A stretch of 64,000 bases of DNA. Source: Octopus vulgaris. Its lineage: Eukaryota. Shown piece by piece: positions 2,152 to 64,000 of the stretch. The DNA lies in contig OX597819.1 in NCBI GenBank assembly GCA_951406725.2, positions 75,764,001-75,828,000 of the forward strand. Direction: 5' to 3'. Below the pieces are notes generated by a model. The model did no database searches, was not told the origin of the DNA, and saw nothing but the letters and a program-made list of their open reading frames with translations. Position numbers and translations under genes: made by a program. Every line of letters begins with the position of its first letter. Position 1 is the first letter of the stretch.

Positions 2152-2182
<31 letters not shown>

Positions 2183-2187
2183 ATATA

Positions 2188-2395
2188 ATAATAAATATTA
2201 GGGAATAAATCCAAATTTACAGGGAAAAAAAATGAGATTTAGGATTAAATCCAATTTTATAGTAAAATATTATAAAATATTATTAGAGACAAAAAAAGGA
2301 AAGACTTAATCAATACATAAAATTTTATGTATTGATTAAGTCTTTCCTTGTTTGTTTTGCAAAATAGTGGTTTTGTCTCTAATAATATTTTATAT
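2188..2395 (-). mobile_element. PLE-type inverted-repeat element, family 1 (short copy, no ribozyme retained)
   Basis: Same sequence as 39020-39190 and 39996-40160. Hairpin is centred at 2322/2323 with an unpaired tail of about 90 bp. Flanked by (TA)n on both sides. Confidence 0.8.
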
Positions 2396-2430: not shown

Positions 2431-2893
<463 letters not shown>

Positions 2894-2903
<10 letters not shown>

Positions 2904-5900
2904 AAAGCAATCAAATAAACAAATCACCAAAACAATTAAAACCATCCACTCTCGCCTCAACATTTCTGCTTAATGCCCAAGGCATCAGCCCTTCCACCAA
3001 TACACAAAAATGGAAGATAAGATTCCTGGAGGACTGGGTCGAGGCCCATCCAAACCACATCCCTTTCTTCGTCCTCACTGAAACCCATCTTAGTGACCTC
3101 CACTTGGAAGCCGAGGTGAAAGTTAAAAATTTCAAAACCATTCGTGCTGATCGTGTTGGCAGAAGAAAGGGTGGGACTGCCATTTATGTCCATGATTCAT
3201 TCTCAACAGAAGCCATGAACATATTTTCGAATGGATACTGCGAAGCAGTCGCTGTATTCAGTCAAACCAACAACTTAACAGTAGTTGGGCTCTACAGACC
3301 ACCCCAAACGCCCCTACCATGCTTCAAGGAATGCCTCAACAGCATAAAGTGTTTCATTCAGCAGTGTCAACCTGACAACATTTTAATGATGGGAGATTTC
3401 AACCTTCCCGGGGTTGACTGGTCTATAAACAGTCTGCCGCCAGGTTCTTCTCTCTCAACCCCTGACAGGGAGGCAGTGGAATCGCTTCTTGACTTCATGG
3501 ATGACTTCTTCTTGTCCCAACTGGTACTCGAACCAACGAGATGTCACAAAAACGTCTTAGACTTAATTTTCAGCAATCACACTGATACTATCCACAATAT
3601 TGCAGTGGAGAAAACCCTACTCTCCGACCATGACATGGTTCTCTGTGATCTGAGATTTCACTGGCCAAAATGCAAAACAAATGTCATCCCTCCTGTTCAT
3701 CCATTTGACACTATGGATTTCCACAATGCAAACTGGGAAGCGATCAATAATGATCTTGCACAAGTCGATTGGTCCTTCACGCACACATACACACCCACTA
3801 ACATCAAAAAGTCCTGGCAGTCACTTGTAGACACCATCACGAACATATGTGCAAGACACACCCCATTAAGATCTGCAAACAAATCTAAGTGTCGAATCCC
3901 TAGAAATAGAAAATCTCTCATAAGGAAAATTAAAAGAATCAACAAAAAGATCAACATGCTGAAATACTGTCAACAGCAACACACCAACCTGACTGCCATC
4001 TCGTCGCTAGAGATTAAAAAACATAAACTCCAAAACAACATGATGTCTATCATCAATAGTCAGCGAAGAGCTGAAGAGGCCTGGGCCATTGAGAAGATCA
4101 AACTCAATCCCAAAGTGTTCTTTTCATTTGCAAAAAAACACAGAGTCACTGGTTCTACTGTTGGCCCTCTGATTGATGAAAATGGTATTCTTCAAGACAA
4201 TGCCAAAACCATGGGAGAAATATTGCAGAAACAATATTGCTCTGTTTTCAGCAATCCTGATATGACTGATCTGGGCTGTATCAGTGATGTTACTCCCCAA
4301 TACACTTTATCGGACATAACATTTGGCGCTCCTGATGTCTTAGCAGCAATAAAGGAAATGAAGCATAATTCAGCAGTAGGTCCCGATAGGTTCCCTGCTT
4401 GTGTCTTGAAGATGTGTCAAAACCAACTTGCACCCCCTCTAGCCAATCTGTGGCGGAACTCATTGGATGCTGGATATATACCAGAAGACCTTCTATCCCA
4501 GTCTGTTGTCCCAGTTTTCAAAAAAGGAAACAAATCGCTTGCCGTGAATTACCGTCCAATCTCACTCACCTCTCATATCATCAAGGTATTTGAGAGGGTG
4601 CTGAGATCGCGTATGACTCACTTCCTTGAGAGTCATAATATGCTGAACCCCAACCAGCATGGATTCCGTAATGGGAGAGATTGCCTGACGCAGCTACTGC
4701 ATCATTTTGATGACATTTTGAGAGCCTTGGGAGAGGGTTCCAACACTGATGTCATCTACCTTGATTTCAGCAAGGCCTTTGACAGGGTTGATCATAAGAT
4801 CCTTCTGAGAAAGCTGTCCAATATTGGTGTCACTGGAAAGCTGCTGCAATGGATCAAGTGCTTCCTCTCTAACAGAACCCAACATGTTGTAGTCGAAGGA
4901 GTCAAATCCAGCCCAGCCAAAGTCAGCAGTGGTGTCCCACAAGGCACTGTGTTGGGCCCACTTCTCTTCATCATCTACATAAATGATATTACTGACACCA
5001 TCAAACACAGCAACATCAGAACCTTCGCTGATGATTCCAAGCTCCAGAAGGTCATCAATGGCGTGGATGACCGAATAAACCTTCAGTCAGACCTACTAGC
5101 TGTTGTCCAATGGGCGGAAAAGAATAACATGTTGCTAAATGAAGACAAATTCGAACTGATCCACTTTGGAAGGGAGGACGCTCTGAAACTCCCATACTCT
5201 CTTCCTTCTGGAGAAATTCTCATGGCATCCAACAACATCAGAGACCTGGGAGTAACAGTGGACAACAACATAAGCTGGGCTACACATATAAGCAGCAAAG
5301 TTGACATGGCCCGCAGAATGTGTTCCTGGATTCTCAGAACCTTCCAGTCGAGAGATTCCCACGCTATTATCCTTCTCTTCTCCACTTTTGCCCGACCCCA
5401 CCTTGAATACTGCTGTCCACTGTGGTCTCCCTACACAAAACAAAATATTATGAGAATTGAAGCTCCCCAAAGGTCAATCACAAAAAAGATAGATGGCATG
5501 TCAGACCTTGACTACTGGGGTAGACTAGAGAAGCTGAAATTGTATTCACTCCAACGACGCCGTGAACGCTACATTATCTGTATGATGTGGAAAATATTCC
5601 ATCAGCACTGTCCGAATGATGTTGGCATCACCTTCAAAATGCATCCAAGGCTTGGACCACGTGCCATCCGTCCACAACAAAAATCTAAATCGCATCACAT
5701 AACGACAATACGGCACAACTATTTCACCTCAATTGGACCCGCTCTCTTCAACATTACACCAGGACACGTCAAAAAAGAAACTGACCACACAAAATTCAAG
5801 AAGTCTTTGGACAAATTCCTTCAAACAGTACCGGACAAACCATCCACACCCGGATATGTCTCCGCAAACAATAACTCTCTGCTCGAATGGGCCTTGGTGC

Positions 5901-5911
5901 CCAAATCCTGA
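2894..5911 (+). CDS. LINE ORF2: apurinic-like endonuclease plus reverse transcriptase (1005 aa)
   Basis: APE motifs LLNAQG, LTETHL, GLYRPP, GDFNLP, LDLIF, SDHDMV. RT motifs NYRPISLTS, QHGFR, YLDFSKAFD, GVPQGTVLGPLLF, FADD, DLGV. No stops. Confidence 0.96.
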
Positions 5912-6000
5912 ACTGAAAGACTTCGCCAGGTGGTGCTATTAAGTTAGACATGGCCTGGGCCAATACTGGCCAAAAACCTTTCTAAGTTATTCTAAGTTAT

Positions 6001-6534
<534 letters not shown>

Positions 6535-6908
6535 CCAATTAAGGACTGAACACGAAAAGGTGGACAGTCAACATGCTAGATATAGACGTCAAATCGCCAT
6601 TCTCCACAAAGATTTTGTTCTCAAATAAAAATAAAATTCAGCACGACCTAAAGCAATGTATGAGACAAAAGAAATATACTTCTTTTGTCTCATACATTGC
6701 TTTAGGTCGTGCTGAATTTTATTTTTATTTGAGAACAAAATCTTTGTGGAGAATGGCGATTTGACGTCTATATCTAGCATGTTGACTGTCCACCTTTTCG
6801 TGTTCAGTCCTTAATTGGTATATATAAATATTTTAATCTTCGGATTCTTTTAATGTGCTAGACCACTGGTTTTAATTGACTAATATCAATTTCTACCCTT
6901 AATTTTTA
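6535..6908 (+). mobile_element. PLE-type inverted-repeat element, family 2 (139-bp arms plus tail)
   Basis: 6535-6673 is the reverse complement of 6680-6818 around a 6-nt loop. An unpaired tail of about 85 bp follows. (TA)n on both sides. Confidence 0.75.
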
Positions 6909-38386: not shown

Positions 38387-38388
<2 letters not shown>

Positions 38389-39188
38389 TAAAATATTATT
38401 AGAGACAAAACCACTATTTTGCAAAACAAACAAGGAAAGACTTAATCAATACATAAAATTTTTATAAATAGTCAAAAAAACCGCCACTACAATTGTTAAG
38501 TGATGTCCGTTTTCTAGAGCGTGAATGTGGGTTGTATGTGTGTGTGTGGGAGTATGAATAAGTATTGTGTTGAAGTATTTAGCTATTTTATTTATTTATA
38601 GTTGCCTAGACGTTTTTATGTGTTTGTATAGGCATATATATATAGGTGTGTGATTTAGTGTATGTAGTTAGATATGGTTATATATAATTAGTTATATGTG
38701 TATGGGTGTATATATAGTTTATTATTATATTATTATTATTATTTTTTTGTTTTGTTTTATATTTTATATTTTATATTTTATATTTTATATTTTATATTTA
38801 ATTGTTGATAGGTTTATTTTAGTTTATATATTGTTTATATATTGATTATATATGGATTATATATAGGTTATATATGGATTATATATTTATATTTTTTCAT
38901 TCATACTTTAATTATTTTAAAATTATTATTTTTATATTTTAAAATATTGATATTTTAGATTGGAAGTCCACCTGAAGATTGTCGATCAAGACAAGAAACA
39001 ATTGTAGTGGCGGTTTTTTTGACTATTTATTAAAATTTTATGTATTGATTAAGTCTTTCCTTGTTTGTTTTGCAAAATAGTGGTTTTGTCTCTAATAATA
39101 TTTTATAATATTTTACTATAAAATTGGATATAATCCTAAATCTGATTTTTTCCCTGTAAATTTGGATTTATTCCCTAATATTTATTAT

Positions 39189-39190
<2 letters not shown>
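38387..39190 (+). mobile_element. PLE-type inverted-repeat element, family 1 (long copy with hammerhead)
   Basis: 38387-38496 is the inverse of about 38997-39107. A low-complexity spacer separates the arms, a tail of about 85 bp follows, and both flanks are (TA)n. Confidence 0.85.
38968..39010 (+). ncRNA. Minimal type I hammerhead ribozyme
   Basis: CCAC-CUGAAGA-UUGUC(gaucaa)GACAA-GAAA-C(AAUU)G-UA^-GUGG. Full core; predicted cleavage after A39006. Confidence 0.85.
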
Positions 39191-39236
<46 letters not shown>

Positions 39237-39449
39237 TATACATATATATATACACATACATACTTAATACATATTTATATATGCATACATATATACATAT
39301 ATGTATATATGTATATGTATAAACATAGATGTGTATATATGTCTCTCTGTTTTTATATATACATTAATATATTTCATCAAACATCGCAGCATATTAAAAT
39401 ACCTTTAAAGGTGAAAATTATAAACTATTTGCCCTTGTATACATATATG

Positions 39450-39497
<48 letters not shown>

Positions 39498-39519
39498 CAC
39501 ACATGTATACATACATAAA

Positions 39520-39551
<32 letters not shown>

Positions 39552-39560
39552 CATACATAC

Positions 39561-39595
<35 letters not shown>

Positions 39596-39603
<8 letters not shown>

Positions 39604-39975
39604 TTTTTTGCGTAATGAGATAAAAAACCAAGGCTGTATAGATATTAGAGCATTTATAGATAGAAGGTCTTACAGCTGTTTCTAGGATATCAATTAATAG
39701 TATCCCTTCATCGAAGACGGTGTGAGAGGAAAAATTAAGTCATAGTTAGTTTCGATGTGATACAAATAGAGAGTGAGGTTCTAATATCTATACAGCGTTG
39801 GTTTTTTTTTTTATCTCATTACGCAAAACTTCATATATACACACGCTGACATAGAACCAACGTTGAACCCTTTATTCACAGTACTACCGAATCTGGAACT
39901 TAACTATGGTCTGTCTATAGCACTTATTCAGCATTACCTGACACCTTTGGGTCTCAATGACACCATTATCTCTTA
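39596..39975 (+). mobile_element. PLE-type inverted-repeat element, family 5
   Basis: 39596-39649 is inverse to 39780-39837, with a tail of about 135 bp and (TA)n flanks. Confidence 0.7.
39667..39718 (-). ncRNA. Degenerate type I hammerhead
   Basis: GUCU-UCGAUGA-aGGGAUA..UAUCCUa-GAAA-C(AGCU)G-UA^-AGAC. The core starts UC instead of CU and stem II has an A-A mismatch at its base. Confidence 0.55.
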
Positions 39976-40176
39976 TATATATATATATATATATAGATAA
40001 TAAATATTAGGGAATAAATCCAAATTTACAGGGGAAAAAATCAGATTTAGGATTAAATCCAATTTTATAGTAAAATATTATATAATATTAATTCGAGACA
40101 AAACCACTATTTTGCAAAACAAACAAGGAAAGACTTAATCAATACATAAAAATTTTAATATAAAATAAATAAACCG

Positions 40177-40220
40177 CCACTACAATCGTTTCATGTCTTC
40201 AAATGACATTCGTCAGGTGG
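40177..40220 (-). ncRNA. Minimal type I hammerhead ribozyme
   Basis: Exact reverse complement of 40278-40321. Confidence 0.85.
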
Positions 40221-40277
40221 ATTTCCGATCTTCTAATCAGTTTTAAATAATTTAAAACTGATTAGAAGATCGGAAAT

Positions 40278-40321
40278 CCACCTGACGAATGTCATTTGAA
40301 GACATGAAACGATTGTAGTGG
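40278..40321 (+). ncRNA. Minimal type I hammerhead ribozyme
   Basis: CCAC-CUGACGA-AUGUC(auuugaa)GACAU-GAAA-C(GAUU)G-UA^-GUGG. Predicted cleavage after A40317. Confidence 0.85.
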
Positions 40322-41449
40322 CGGTTTATTTATTTTATATTAAAATTTTTATGTATTGATTAAGTCTTTCCTTGTTTGTTTTGCAAAATAGTGGTTTTGT
40401 CTCGAATTAATATTATATATATATATATATATATGCATGTATAAATTGAAAGAGGAACACAAAACAAAGGAATCATAAACTACATTAAGAAAACTCATAT
40501 TTGTGTGAGAATGCAAAATCTAAACATGTATTATGACGAAATTATACAATAGTTAGTCCAATCAGAGCTAACATGGAGTAAACAACTACATACATTCGTG
40601 TTTGAGTTGTTGAAGCTTATGATCTTGCCGTACTTGTCTAACCCTAAATTTATGCTGAACGAGCAAACCTATAATTGCAGTCTCTCTAGCCATGACCATC
40701 CTGCCTTCTGAGACTACCGTATGCAATGTTGATGATAGGCTGTGATCCAGTGAAAATGTGGCTTCTATTCTTGAAACGAATCAAAGAAATAACGATGACT
40801 ACTTGTGTTTATCTGCCTTTTTACTACCACACACACATACATACACACACACACACACGCATACATACACATACATACATATAAACATACATACATACAT
40901 ACATACATCATTAACTCGAAACAACAAACAGCGTATTTGTCGCGGAGGAGAACTATTTATCGAAATACTTTGAATACAATCTCCAGCTTTGAAGCCATAA
41001 CTATCTGCCCTATTAAACAACTGGTAAATCTTCTGATGAATTAACTGAGCGAATCTTTCATTGAAGATCGAAGTTATTTTCGATTGAAACTTGAGTTTAT
41101 CATAGAGAGAGTCATCACAACAACATGGCTGGACACGATAACTTCAAAATTATCATTGAGGACATTAAAAAAAAAATACTGTGCAACATGTTAGAAGATT
41201 CTTTCTAACTGTAGGTATAGAAGAAACCGTATCTATAAACATATTCGTCTTGGAGTTATTAATTGAATACTGATTTGGAAAACTTTCTAGAAGTTGATCA
41301 TTTAAGTATATACGCGCATATCTAGATATGCAACTATATGCATAAGAATACATACATAAAGCAAAATATACAAACCTGCACATGCACTGACTCCAAATAC
41401 AGCGGCATATATACACATACATGCAAGCATACTCTGTTGATGATGCTGA

Positions 41450-60545: not shown

Positions 60546-60588
<43 letters not shown>

Positions 60589-60968
60589 GATAAATATCAA
60601 AGTGAGTTATATACAGTAGCGGTAACACATCGTGACGTATTTTTGCCATTTCAATATGGCTAACCCCTAAGGGTGGATGCTACTGTAGTTTTTAGCCCCA
60701 GGAGGACACACTCCTCCAGCTGGCCATAGACACACTATCTGTGTCCTGTCAGTATTTGCAAAGGGAAGTCATCCTTCCCGTCTTCAACTTATGATACACT
60801 TAGGGGTTAGCCATATTGAAATGGCAAAAATACGTCACGATGTGTTACCGCTACTGTATATAACTCACTTTGATATTTATCATTGTTTGATTTCACTTTT
60901 TCAATATCAGCGACAGTGGGCGCTGGAAAAAGTATAAGTATTTGTGAAGGAAATCTAATTCTCGGCGA

Positions 60969-61038
60969 CAACTATGATTGTCACACGCTGACGAGAGGTC
61001 AATACCTCGAAACTCGAGTCCGTGTGTATCATAAGTTG
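60969..61038 (+). ncRNA. Type I hammerhead ribozyme with extended stem I
   Basis: CACACG-CUGACGA-GAGGU(caau)ACCUC-GAAA-C(UCGA)G-UC^-CGUGUG (60982-61026). Stem I extends by UAUGAU/AUCAUA and CAAC/GUUG. Predicted cleavage after C61020. Confidence 0.92.
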
Positions 61039-61320
61039 AAGACGGGAAGGATGACTTCCTTTGCAAATACTGACAGGACACAGATAGTGTGTCTATGGCC
61101 AGCTGGAGGAGTGTGTCCTCCTGGGGCTAAAAACTACAGTAGCATCCACCCTTAGGGGTTAGCCATATTGAAATGGCAAAAATACGTCACGATGTGTTAC
61201 CGCTACTGTATATAACTCACTTTGATATTTATCATTGTTTGATTTCACTTTTTCAATATCAGCGACAGTGGGCGCTGGAAAAAGTATAAGTATTTGTGAA
61301 GGAAATCTAATTCTCGGCGA

Positions 61321-61390
61321 CAACTATGATTGTCACACGCTGACGAGAGGTCAATACCTCGAAACTCGAGTCCGTGTGTATCATAAGTTG
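61321..61390 (+). ncRNA. Type I hammerhead ribozyme (second tandem copy)
   Basis: Identical to the first copy; core at 61334-61378; predicted cleavage after C61372. Confidence 0.92.
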
Positions 61391-61539
61391 AAGACGGGAA
61401 GGATGACTTCCCTTTGCAAATACTGACAGGACACAGATAGTGTGTCTATGGCCAGCTGGAGGAGTGTGTCCTCCTGGGGCTAAAAACTACAGTAGCATCC
61501 ACCCTTAGGGGTTAGCCATATTGAAATGGCAAAAATACG

Positions 61540-61603
<64 letters not shown>

Positions 61604-63009: not shown

Positions 63010-64000
63010 ATATATATTTAAGTAATGACAGGCTATATTCTGAAGTGACAGATATAACTGCGACCAGGATTGAGGACCGAATTAACACTGCATGAACGGA
63101 CATCTGTAGACGGAGACAAATACATAAATTCAAGGCAACTTCATCACAAATAACAGTAGATTACCGAGATTTTATCACCCCATTAAAACACACAAGAATA
63201 GCAAAACGATCCAGATTAGACCCATCATCTCCAGCGTGGAAGGCCCTCTATATAAAATATCCTGGTTACTTTCTCACCTCCTGAAACTCATACTCTCCAC
63301 CTTTCCTGGACACGTCAAGAACTCCGACGAAATCATCAAAAGACTGCACAAATTGCCCCTAGACCAACTCGGGCAAAACAGATATGCCTTTAGTCTTGAC
63401 GTTGTCTCAATGTACACAACGGTGCCAGCACACTCGGCGGTCAACCTATTGACTGACTGCATAACAGCGTCCGACATCCAATGCTTCGGACTTACCGCAG
63501 ATGGTATTCATCAAATTACGTCCATCATCGTGGACAACGCCTACTTCTCTTTCCAGGACTACATATACAAACAGACAACAAGTCTTTCCATGGGATTCAG
63601 ACTCTCGGGTCTATTAGCCATCACTTATATGAACCATCTGGAACGTCGAGCACTCAACATCTGCCACTCATGCACCTTCTTTACCAGGTACGTAGATGAC
63701 ATCCTCATACTCACATCCTCCCATGAAGAGGCTGACACAATATTCACGACGTTCAATAACATGGACATGAACATACAGTTCACTATAGAACATCCTGTCA
63801 TCACTGGATCGCTATCACTACTTGACTTCAAACTGAATATAACGGAAGGGGAGATCCACACCGAGTTCTACAGGAAAGCAGCCAGTAGAGATGTGTTTGT
63901 CCAATACAATTCAGCACTTCCACTCGGTGCCAAAATAGCCTATGCCAGATATGAACTTATACGCAACCAGGGTAAGTGCAGTAGAGCGGAGGACAAGTGA
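63010..64000 (+). pseudogene. Penelope-like element reverse transcriptase, 5'-truncated and disrupted
   Basis: PRFY..IKTHK....IRPIISS, SLDVVSMYTTVP, YFSFQDYIYKQ..LSMG..LS..LA..YM..LE, RYVDDIL, IQFTIE, LLD, YRK are PLE-type RT motifs. There is a frameshift and stop upstream of 63236 and a TGA at 63998-64000 before any GIY-YIG domain. Confidence 0.88.

Follow-up and report, generated by a model that had tools for sequence, protein, structure and literature searches.

Short hammerhead-bearing inserts of Octopus vulgaris as probable end fragments of a Penelope-like retrotransposon, one of them likely copied from a spliced transcript

A stretch of 64,000 nucleotides of the Octopus vulgaris genome (assembly GCA_951406725.2, contig OX597819.1, positions 75,764,001 to 75,828,000; C6:75764001-75828000 in our numbering, referred to as the window) contains three copies, A, B and C, of a short element, two of which carry a type I hammerhead ribozyme motif (family 1). 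It is highly probable that these inserts are end fragments of a Penelope-like element (PLE), likely of the Hydra clade, that copy B derives from a spliced, uncut sense mRNA and that the base swap separating stem II of the two hammerheads is not compensatory. An intron partly retained in copy A is missing from copy B, exactly from GT to AG, and B was thus likely reverse-transcribed from such an mRNA.

Both hammerheads show the CUGANGA and GAAA core, three helices and an NUH cleavage site. They differ at N7, at the terminal pair of stem II, in loop II and in the first base of a presumed loop III. An earlier sequence-only reading of the window had described stem II as UUGUC/GACAA in one copy and AUGUC/GACAU in the other, with further changes at N7, loop II and loop III, and this description agrees with the sequence. 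Its third, ribozyme-less copy is copy C, which belongs to the same element and is cut about 25 nt past the cleavage site. Two points escaped it: in copy B two hammerhead-bearing arms face each other head to head (40079-40248 and 40250-40419, 100% complementary), and the upstream difference between A and B stems from the splicing of B. All three copies lie within (TA)n, and each has one arm with a "long" and one with a "short" fixed end (Table 1). The repeat finder output for the window was dominated by microsatellites, its inverted-repeat list alone being informative.

In the whole genome (2.8 Gb, 227 contigs), the family 1 pattern comprising the core, helix III and the 3' strand of stem I matched 3,377 times vs. 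4 times for a reversed control, the two arms of one insert being counted as separate matches. The motif is therefore far above chance, and the proposal of an actively propagating family is borne out insofar as the family is young and abundant.

A leader not exceeding about 37 nt is common to the short copies. Long copies lack it at that place but contain it internally, in most of them 978-1,893 nt ahead of the acceptor and in three rearranged cases 3.1-3.6 kb ahead of it. There it is followed by GTAAGT or GTATGT, and the interval ends with TTTTAG 9 nt before stem I, giving an intron of about 1.0-1.9 kb that differs in length between lineages. In 22 long-copy contexts a GT donor comes after exon 1, and TTC stands before exon 1 in every one of them. 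An origin of the short copies as circles deleted for the open reading frame (ORF), or as recombinants with long copies, was dropped once exon 1 and the GT donor had been found inside long copies. The leader of copy B is followed by GT at 2 places; the unspliced parent locus L231 has a 1,105-nt GTATGT..TTTTAG intron together with the exact hammerhead of B. Both arms of copy B represent the exact exon 1-exon 2 join, whereas copy A keeps 468 nt of the intron. As in processed retrocopies, a GT-AG intron present in the parent is lost exactly.

This applies to many other inserts, too. Among the first 100 matches of the genome pattern search, which run along contig C1 (the 100-hit sample), 59 were spliced, 28 unspliced and 13 unclear. 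Of the A-type matches (n=40), 12 were unspliced, 22 had been spliced from a first donor and 3 from a second one lying 4 nt downstream, both donors being joined to the same acceptor; the remaining 3 were other cases. For the exact junctions of copy B we counted 57 spliced vs. 6 unspliced matches genome-wide. The 28 head-to-head pairs included 14 with both arms spliced, 8 with both unspliced and 6 that were partly unclear; a mixed pair did not occur among the 22 classifiable ones. Furthermore, 68 of 69 two-armed inserts combine one long and one short end.

Spliced inserts end at or within exon 1. Sixteen of the 19 spliced copies that reach ACTTCA have lost the templated base before it, where TTC stands in 22 of 22 parent contexts. 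ACTTCA is likely the transcription start site, situated in TCACTTC, a sequence resembling the initiator consensus. TCACT has been termed initiator (Inr)-like (PMC3846280). A G, as expected of a non-templated cap G, precedes the start in 7 of the 19 spliced copies; 5 of these can be explained by the opposite arm, and this is a hint at most. The spliced copies span the uncut cleavage site, and the 5' ends of 29 partial arms lacking a full hammerhead were scattered with no pile-up at the cut site. The sequences point to a spliced, uncleaved sense mRNA as a main template. Being spliced, such inserts cannot come from an antisense template.

The parental PLE frame, for which the sequence-only reading had suggested to look upstream, was found in the ten-kilobase stretches adjoining 20 A-type copies, several of which contain a long frame. 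Locus L069 has an uninterrupted frame of 840 codons (4037-6556, protein P0001), which by motif inspection encodes a reverse transcriptase (RT) and, C-terminally, a GIY-YIG endonuclease (EN). P0001 contains the motifs RIKWKA, SDKTRN and YRDD, the linker CTCRDKSNC and VVY..YIG. Its endonuclease lacks CCHH, having one Cys between VVY and YIG, and shows CYLC..E..N..CRH around the conserved E and N. Of its 20 database matches 19 had 30-42% identity over 43-98% of the query. Between RT and endonuclease (residues 515-610, approximately) there is an Asn/Lys-rich low-complexity insert; N-rich inserts have been reported in Adineta PLEs (PMC3846280). A tblastn search for parent ORFs adjoining non-A hammerheads yielded no intact parent and fragments in 4 loci. 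In L037, L104 and L167, family 1 copies have more distant Hydra-like ORF fragments in their vicinity (30-54% identity to P0001), indicating further families in this genome.

In tandem copies the ATG is situated 237 nt past the predicted cut (L079; the same junction occurs in L064), and in L064 two hammerheads 6,829 nt apart flank a frame that is broken near its start. The unit thus reads exon 1 (about 23-27 nt, starting with ACTTCA), a GT-AG intron of 1.0-1.9 kb, 9 nt, the hammerhead, 237 nt and the ORF, the 3' region running on into the next exon 1. Inserts terminate at either of two fixed points about 85-90 nt apart. Insertion into (TA)n, tandem or inverted pseudo-long terminal repeats (pLTRs) with a tail and a hammerhead in the pLTR are traits of the Hydra clade, all of which were observed here. 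The window inserts are likely truncated head-to-head end fragments of a Hydra-clade PLE inserting into TA microsatellites.

With the C-terminal EN+ PLEs of the Hydra clade, e.g. Hydra-1_Obim (Craig et al. 2021, PMC8557442), the octopus element shares the single frame of RT and C-terminal GIY-YIG, the DKT, CxCX5C, CxxC and CxH motifs, the lack of CCHH, (TA)n targets, a type I hammerhead near the 3' end with a near-palindromic helix III and the common U·U beside the core. The octopus unit, however, comprises about 5.7-6.8 kb and not less than 3 kb, due to its long repeat-rich 3' region including the intron. Diverged internal repeats (160-420 nt, 76-85% identity) were detected in the 3' region and intron of L065:7200-8860. 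Other differences from that clade are KWK instead of RWK, the N/K-rich insert between RT and EN and a hammerhead sequence differing from that of Hydra-1_Obim, and the parts of the published account used here mention no intron or spliced insert (PMC8557442). A start site in the pLTR, a 5'-untranslated region (5'-UTR) intron, two internal starts of reverse transcription defining the tail and an uncleaved RNA template appear to be shared with Penelope of Drosophila virilis (Schostak et al. 2008, PMC2377424) and Poseidon PAc (Frangieh et al. 2024, PMC11167929). In these papers the intron has 75 bp compared to 1.0-1.9 kb in octopus and the tail 30-40 nt compared to about 85-90 nt, and both octopus RT ends lie before the ATG. 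Moreover, they describe intron retention, while most of the sampled octopus inserts are spliced.

The following course is inferred for insertion. A Pol II transcript would start at exon 1 of an upstream pLTR, and the element protein would nick (TA)n and initiate cDNA at two internal sites of the 5'-UTR, each site serving one arm. Starts at these 5'-proximal sites of spliced mRNA would give short processed inserts without the ORF, whereas priming at the downstream pLTR, which would usually be unspliced, would give long intron-keeping copies as the sole possible carriers of the ORF. Internal priming and uncleaved RNA as the main substrate have been shown in vitro for PAc (PMC11167929). An intron requirement for expression has been suggested for D. 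virilis Penelope (PMC2377424); if it applied here, spliced copies would be dead ends. On a further-reaching reading, most new inserts would be dead-end processed 5' copies of a capped, spliced and uncleaved sense mRNA. A long and a short reverse transcription, both primed internally, would have used one and the same RNA form; intron retention would be a filter and the hammerhead a dimer-gated brake with a freely drifting core-adjacent pair. We regard this further-reaching reading as evenly balanced between right and wrong. If it holds, "intron retention" of PLEs reflects this filter, ORF-carrying cDNA from the unspliced downstream pLTR alone founds new masters and an antisense template is ruled out for spliced inserts.

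The short copies might instead form a self-propagating non-autonomous family, similar to short interspersed nuclear elements (SINEs) or retrozymes, which arose from a few spliced or deleted masters. Their excess over long copies (the 57 vs. 6 of copy B) and their shared fixed 5' limit would fit such a family, and animal non-LTR retrozymes, for which derivation from PLE pLTRs has been proposed, share the short non-coding units with type I hammerheads and the kinship to PLE pLTRs (bioRxiv 10.64898/2026.07.22.740005). Unlike retrozymes, the octopus copies are solo or head-to-head and can be explained as the spliced 5' end of a PLE transcript; tandem head-to-tail arrays of the short unit, which define retrozymes, were absent from the loci examined. 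Furthermore, each of the six main classes of the core-adjacent pair described below contains spliced as well as unspliced copies, and two donors were used, indicating that splicing occurred repeatedly. A self-propagating family therefore appears improbable to us.

The swap from U-A to A-U at the core-adjacent pair of stem II had been read as a compensatory change reflecting selection for a stem II of 5 bp. In either window variant the pair is of the Watson-Crick type. In the 100-hit sample, this position was U-A in 43 matches, A-U in 13, U·U in 17, A·C in 11, A·G in 8, A·A in 7 and U·C in 1, the latter being a deletion artefact; hence 56 of 100 were pairing and 44 non-pairing. After collapsing the sample to 68 insertions, the pair was formed in 38 and not in 30. 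Genome-wide, at least 1,508 of 3,374 matches (at least 44.7%) were non-pairing; with the inner stem held fixed, 624 were U·U and 884 A·A, A·C or A·G. The mean identity of the downstream segment was 0.97-1.00 in mismatched and 0.97-0.99 in paired groups. The mismatched groups are thus as homogeneous as the paired ones, indicating that the mismatches spread as lineages.

A FastTree tree was calculated, with the pair positions masked, from 62 short sequences; of 128 records, those lacking CCAC and TGTC/GACA had been removed and each type limited to 2 at most. In this tree, which comes from a short alignment and was read by topology alone, the U-A subfamily nests within U·U lineages, and parsimony required 3 changes on one side of the pair, 7 on the other and 9 jointly, the two sides changing on different branches. 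Of 28 subfamily representatives taken from this filtered set (their invariant stems are partly due to its construction, while the 100-hit sample and the flank test below are unbiased), 20 were unpaired and 8 paired at this position, 3 of the latter by a two-sided change. RNAalifold omits the pair on the representatives, and their whole-structure covariation was 0.140 compared to 0.124±0.010 for shuffled alignments, 31 of 500 shuffles being as high, a signal not clearly above shuffles. The lineage-fixed mismatches and separate branch changes show that the two bases swapped in the window changed independently and pair by coincidence. The 4-bp stem UGUC/GACA is invariant, the two bases on its core side vary independently of each other and the core-adjacent swap is drift. 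In the published table of Hydra hammerheads, U·U occurs there in 14 of 25 families and is given as core and not as stem (own count; PMC8557442). Despite the pairs in 56 of the sampled matches and in 8 representatives, compensation is refuted, U·U, A·A, A·G and A·C each being fixed in lineages, and is extremely improbable. With a constant scaffold and the pair occurring as U-A, A-U, U·U, A·A, A·G and A·C, the family offers a ready panel for the importance of the core-adjacent pair. A family 1 lineage with U·U beside the core and GUU instead of GUA as cleavage triplet was observed at L201-L228, 30 of the 83 matches listed being identical.

At positions left free by the search pattern, CCAC was present in 99 and UGUC/GACA in 94 of the 100 sampled matches. 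Variable columns accounted for 1 of 12 unfixed stem positions vs. 32 of 89 flank positions (Fisher p=0.097). Of the proposed purifying selection on ribozyme structure, the lower variation of stem columns is thus suggestive, and covariation did not clearly add to it. The presumed loop III was AAUU in 44 sampled matches, GAUU in 33, GAUC in 14, AUUU in 8 and AGUU in 1. Together with its flanks it forms an 8-nt palindrome without a loop, the outer pair of which is kept in 28 of 28 representatives (A-U 16, G-C 7, G-U 5), and the non-pairing AAUC form (ACAAUCGU) has 18 matches genome-wide. Loop III is therefore not a free position, its self-complementarity being maintained. The AAUU/GAUU/GAUC series suggests the strongest pairing signal of the motif, though from few events. 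Distal stem I (AGAUYG/CGGUUU) was 82% paired in the representatives.

Metazoan hammerheads have been described with a dimeric helix III (PMC4209133), and the self-complementary 8-nt helix III in octopus agrees with this. [quoted passage not shown] Unlike metazoan hammerheads, the octopus motif lacks the typical G10.1-C11.1 pair, and both bases flanking its 4-bp stem II vary freely. Judged by sequence, the hammerhead would most likely cut slowly and as a dimer only, and it may be dispensable for insertion. Alternatively, the motif could be kept as a structure for protein binding or RT positioning, or as a protein-assisted cutter, with self-cleavage not under selection. Such a role, which is compatible with the splicing result, would agree with the templates being uncut throughout, with the missing G10.1-C11.1 pair and with another PLE, the catalytic mutants of which insert normally in vitro and the hammerhead of which needed protein (PMC11167929). 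The maintained self-complementarity of helix III, with the rare ACAAUCGU, and the GUU lineage, which keeps the NUH rule, argue against it, making it rather doubtful, yet with an appreciable chance. A slow, dimer-dependent ribozyme in a spliced PLE transcript remains our preferred interpretation.

Several observations weigh against parts of this interpretation. Neither window motif folds better than shuffled sequences (z -0.26 and +0.33), and the minimum-energy fold of copy A is not the hammerhead; at the gathering score Rfam gave no match for the window hammerheads. The G-C form of helix III arises in one clade, the helix III series could also result from CpG decay and the AUUU lineage (ATTT, 8 of 100) breaks the palindrome with a self-duplex energy of -2.9 vs. 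-5.8 to -10.0 kcal/mol. The splice classes were assigned by our own regular expressions, which left the 13 matches unclear. The spliced copy L132 continues well upstream of exon 1, indicating that downstream introns are sometimes removed. There is a 2-nt AG overlap at the junction of copy B and none at the first-donor junction of A, so that a DNA deletion is possible for B alone. Pfam yielded nothing significant for P0001, and the likely placement in the Hydra clade was made by motifs and by-eye resemblance to published proteins instead of a tree.

Hydra elements carrying hammerheads have been described before, as have inverted ends, tails and introns in the 5'-UTR. PLEs have been noted for keeping introns, the reason being stated as unknown (PMC8557442), and an antisense template has been proposed to explain it (PMC3846280). 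The excess of spliced inserts is unexpected in a group known for intron keeping. By titles and abstract openings we found no report of spliced or intronless genomic PLE inserts, most subscription papers including Arkhipova 2003 lying outside the search, and by the same means none of octopus PLE hammerheads. From many of the inserts one can read exact splicing, a constant start, two sites of priming and a ribozyme left uncut. This splice record provides a countable genomic test of the template strand, the formation of inverted ends and the role of the ribozyme in transposition.

Table 1. Positions of copies A, B and C and their hammerhead motifs in the window
Feature	Position	Strand	Remarks
Copy A hammerhead	38968-39010	+	CCAC CUGAAGA UUGUC GAUCAA GACAA GAAAC AAUU GUA GUGG; type I motif, subfamily A; U-A beside core; helix III ACAAUUGU; predicted cut after 39006 (GUA)
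Copy B hammerhead, short arm	40278-40321	+	CCAC CUGACGA AUGUC AUUUGAA GACAU GAAAC GAUU GUA GUGG; A-U beside core; helix III ACGAUUGU; predicted cut after 40317
Copy B hammerhead, long arm	40177-40220	-	Same motif; predicted cut after 40181 on minus strand
Copy A inverted short arm, without full hammerhead	38387..38497	-	From 10 nt 5' of cleavage site to "short" 3' end; blastn 99% to 38997-39107
Copy A retained 3' part of intron	38491..38958	+	468 nt of the putative 5'-UTR/pLTR intron; acceptor TTTTAG at end; 38491-39200 has 97% identity to L065:8829-9530
Copy A exon 2	38959..39190	+	Hammerhead and 5'-UTR up to "long" 3' end, then (TA)n
Copy B long arm, exon 2	39991..40229	-	Contains hammerhead 40177-40220
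Copy B long arm, last 17 nt of exon 1 fused to exon 2	40230..40246	-	Spliced junction; all 17 nt agree with exon 1 of L231, the unspliced parent
Copy B short arm, last 17 nt of exon 1 fused to exon 2	40252..40268	+	Spliced junction lacking the 1,105-nt intron
Copy B short arm, exon 2	40269..40420	+	Hammerhead 40278-40321; ends at "short" 3' end in (TA)n; initial 70 nt the same as in L231 exon 2
Copy C, A-type head-to-head stub inside (TA)n	2181..2395	.	Long arm minus, short arm plus; truncated about 25 nt 3' of cleavage site

Between copies A and B (39600-39833) lies an element of about 230 bp resembling miniature inverted-repeat transposable elements (MITEs), with imperfect terminal inverted repeats of about 50 bp and TA flanks. 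Directly after copy C, an uninterrupted frame of 1,043 codons of the long interspersed nuclear element (LINE) type was found (2780-5911, plus strand; Pfam Exo_endo_phos and RVT_1), the 3' part of which has an 86% complementary inverted copy at 886-1894. Another open frame with an RVT_1 match (63128-64000, plus strand) runs off the end of the window.

A second, retrozyme-like hammerhead family is present at 60586-61546, with motifs at 60982-61026 and 61334-61378 in a 352-bp direct repeat inside (TA)n and an inverted partial copy at 60586-60799. It has G-C beside the core, helix III ACUCGAGU and a GUC site, and folds better than shuffled sequences (z -2.38). Yet another dispersed family (L171-L200, 180 matches) shows an 8-bp stem II (GAUUUACU/AGUAAAUY), stem I GCAUU/AAUGC and helix III ACGAUCGU; it often ends in (TA)n, and its downstream sequence is unrelated.

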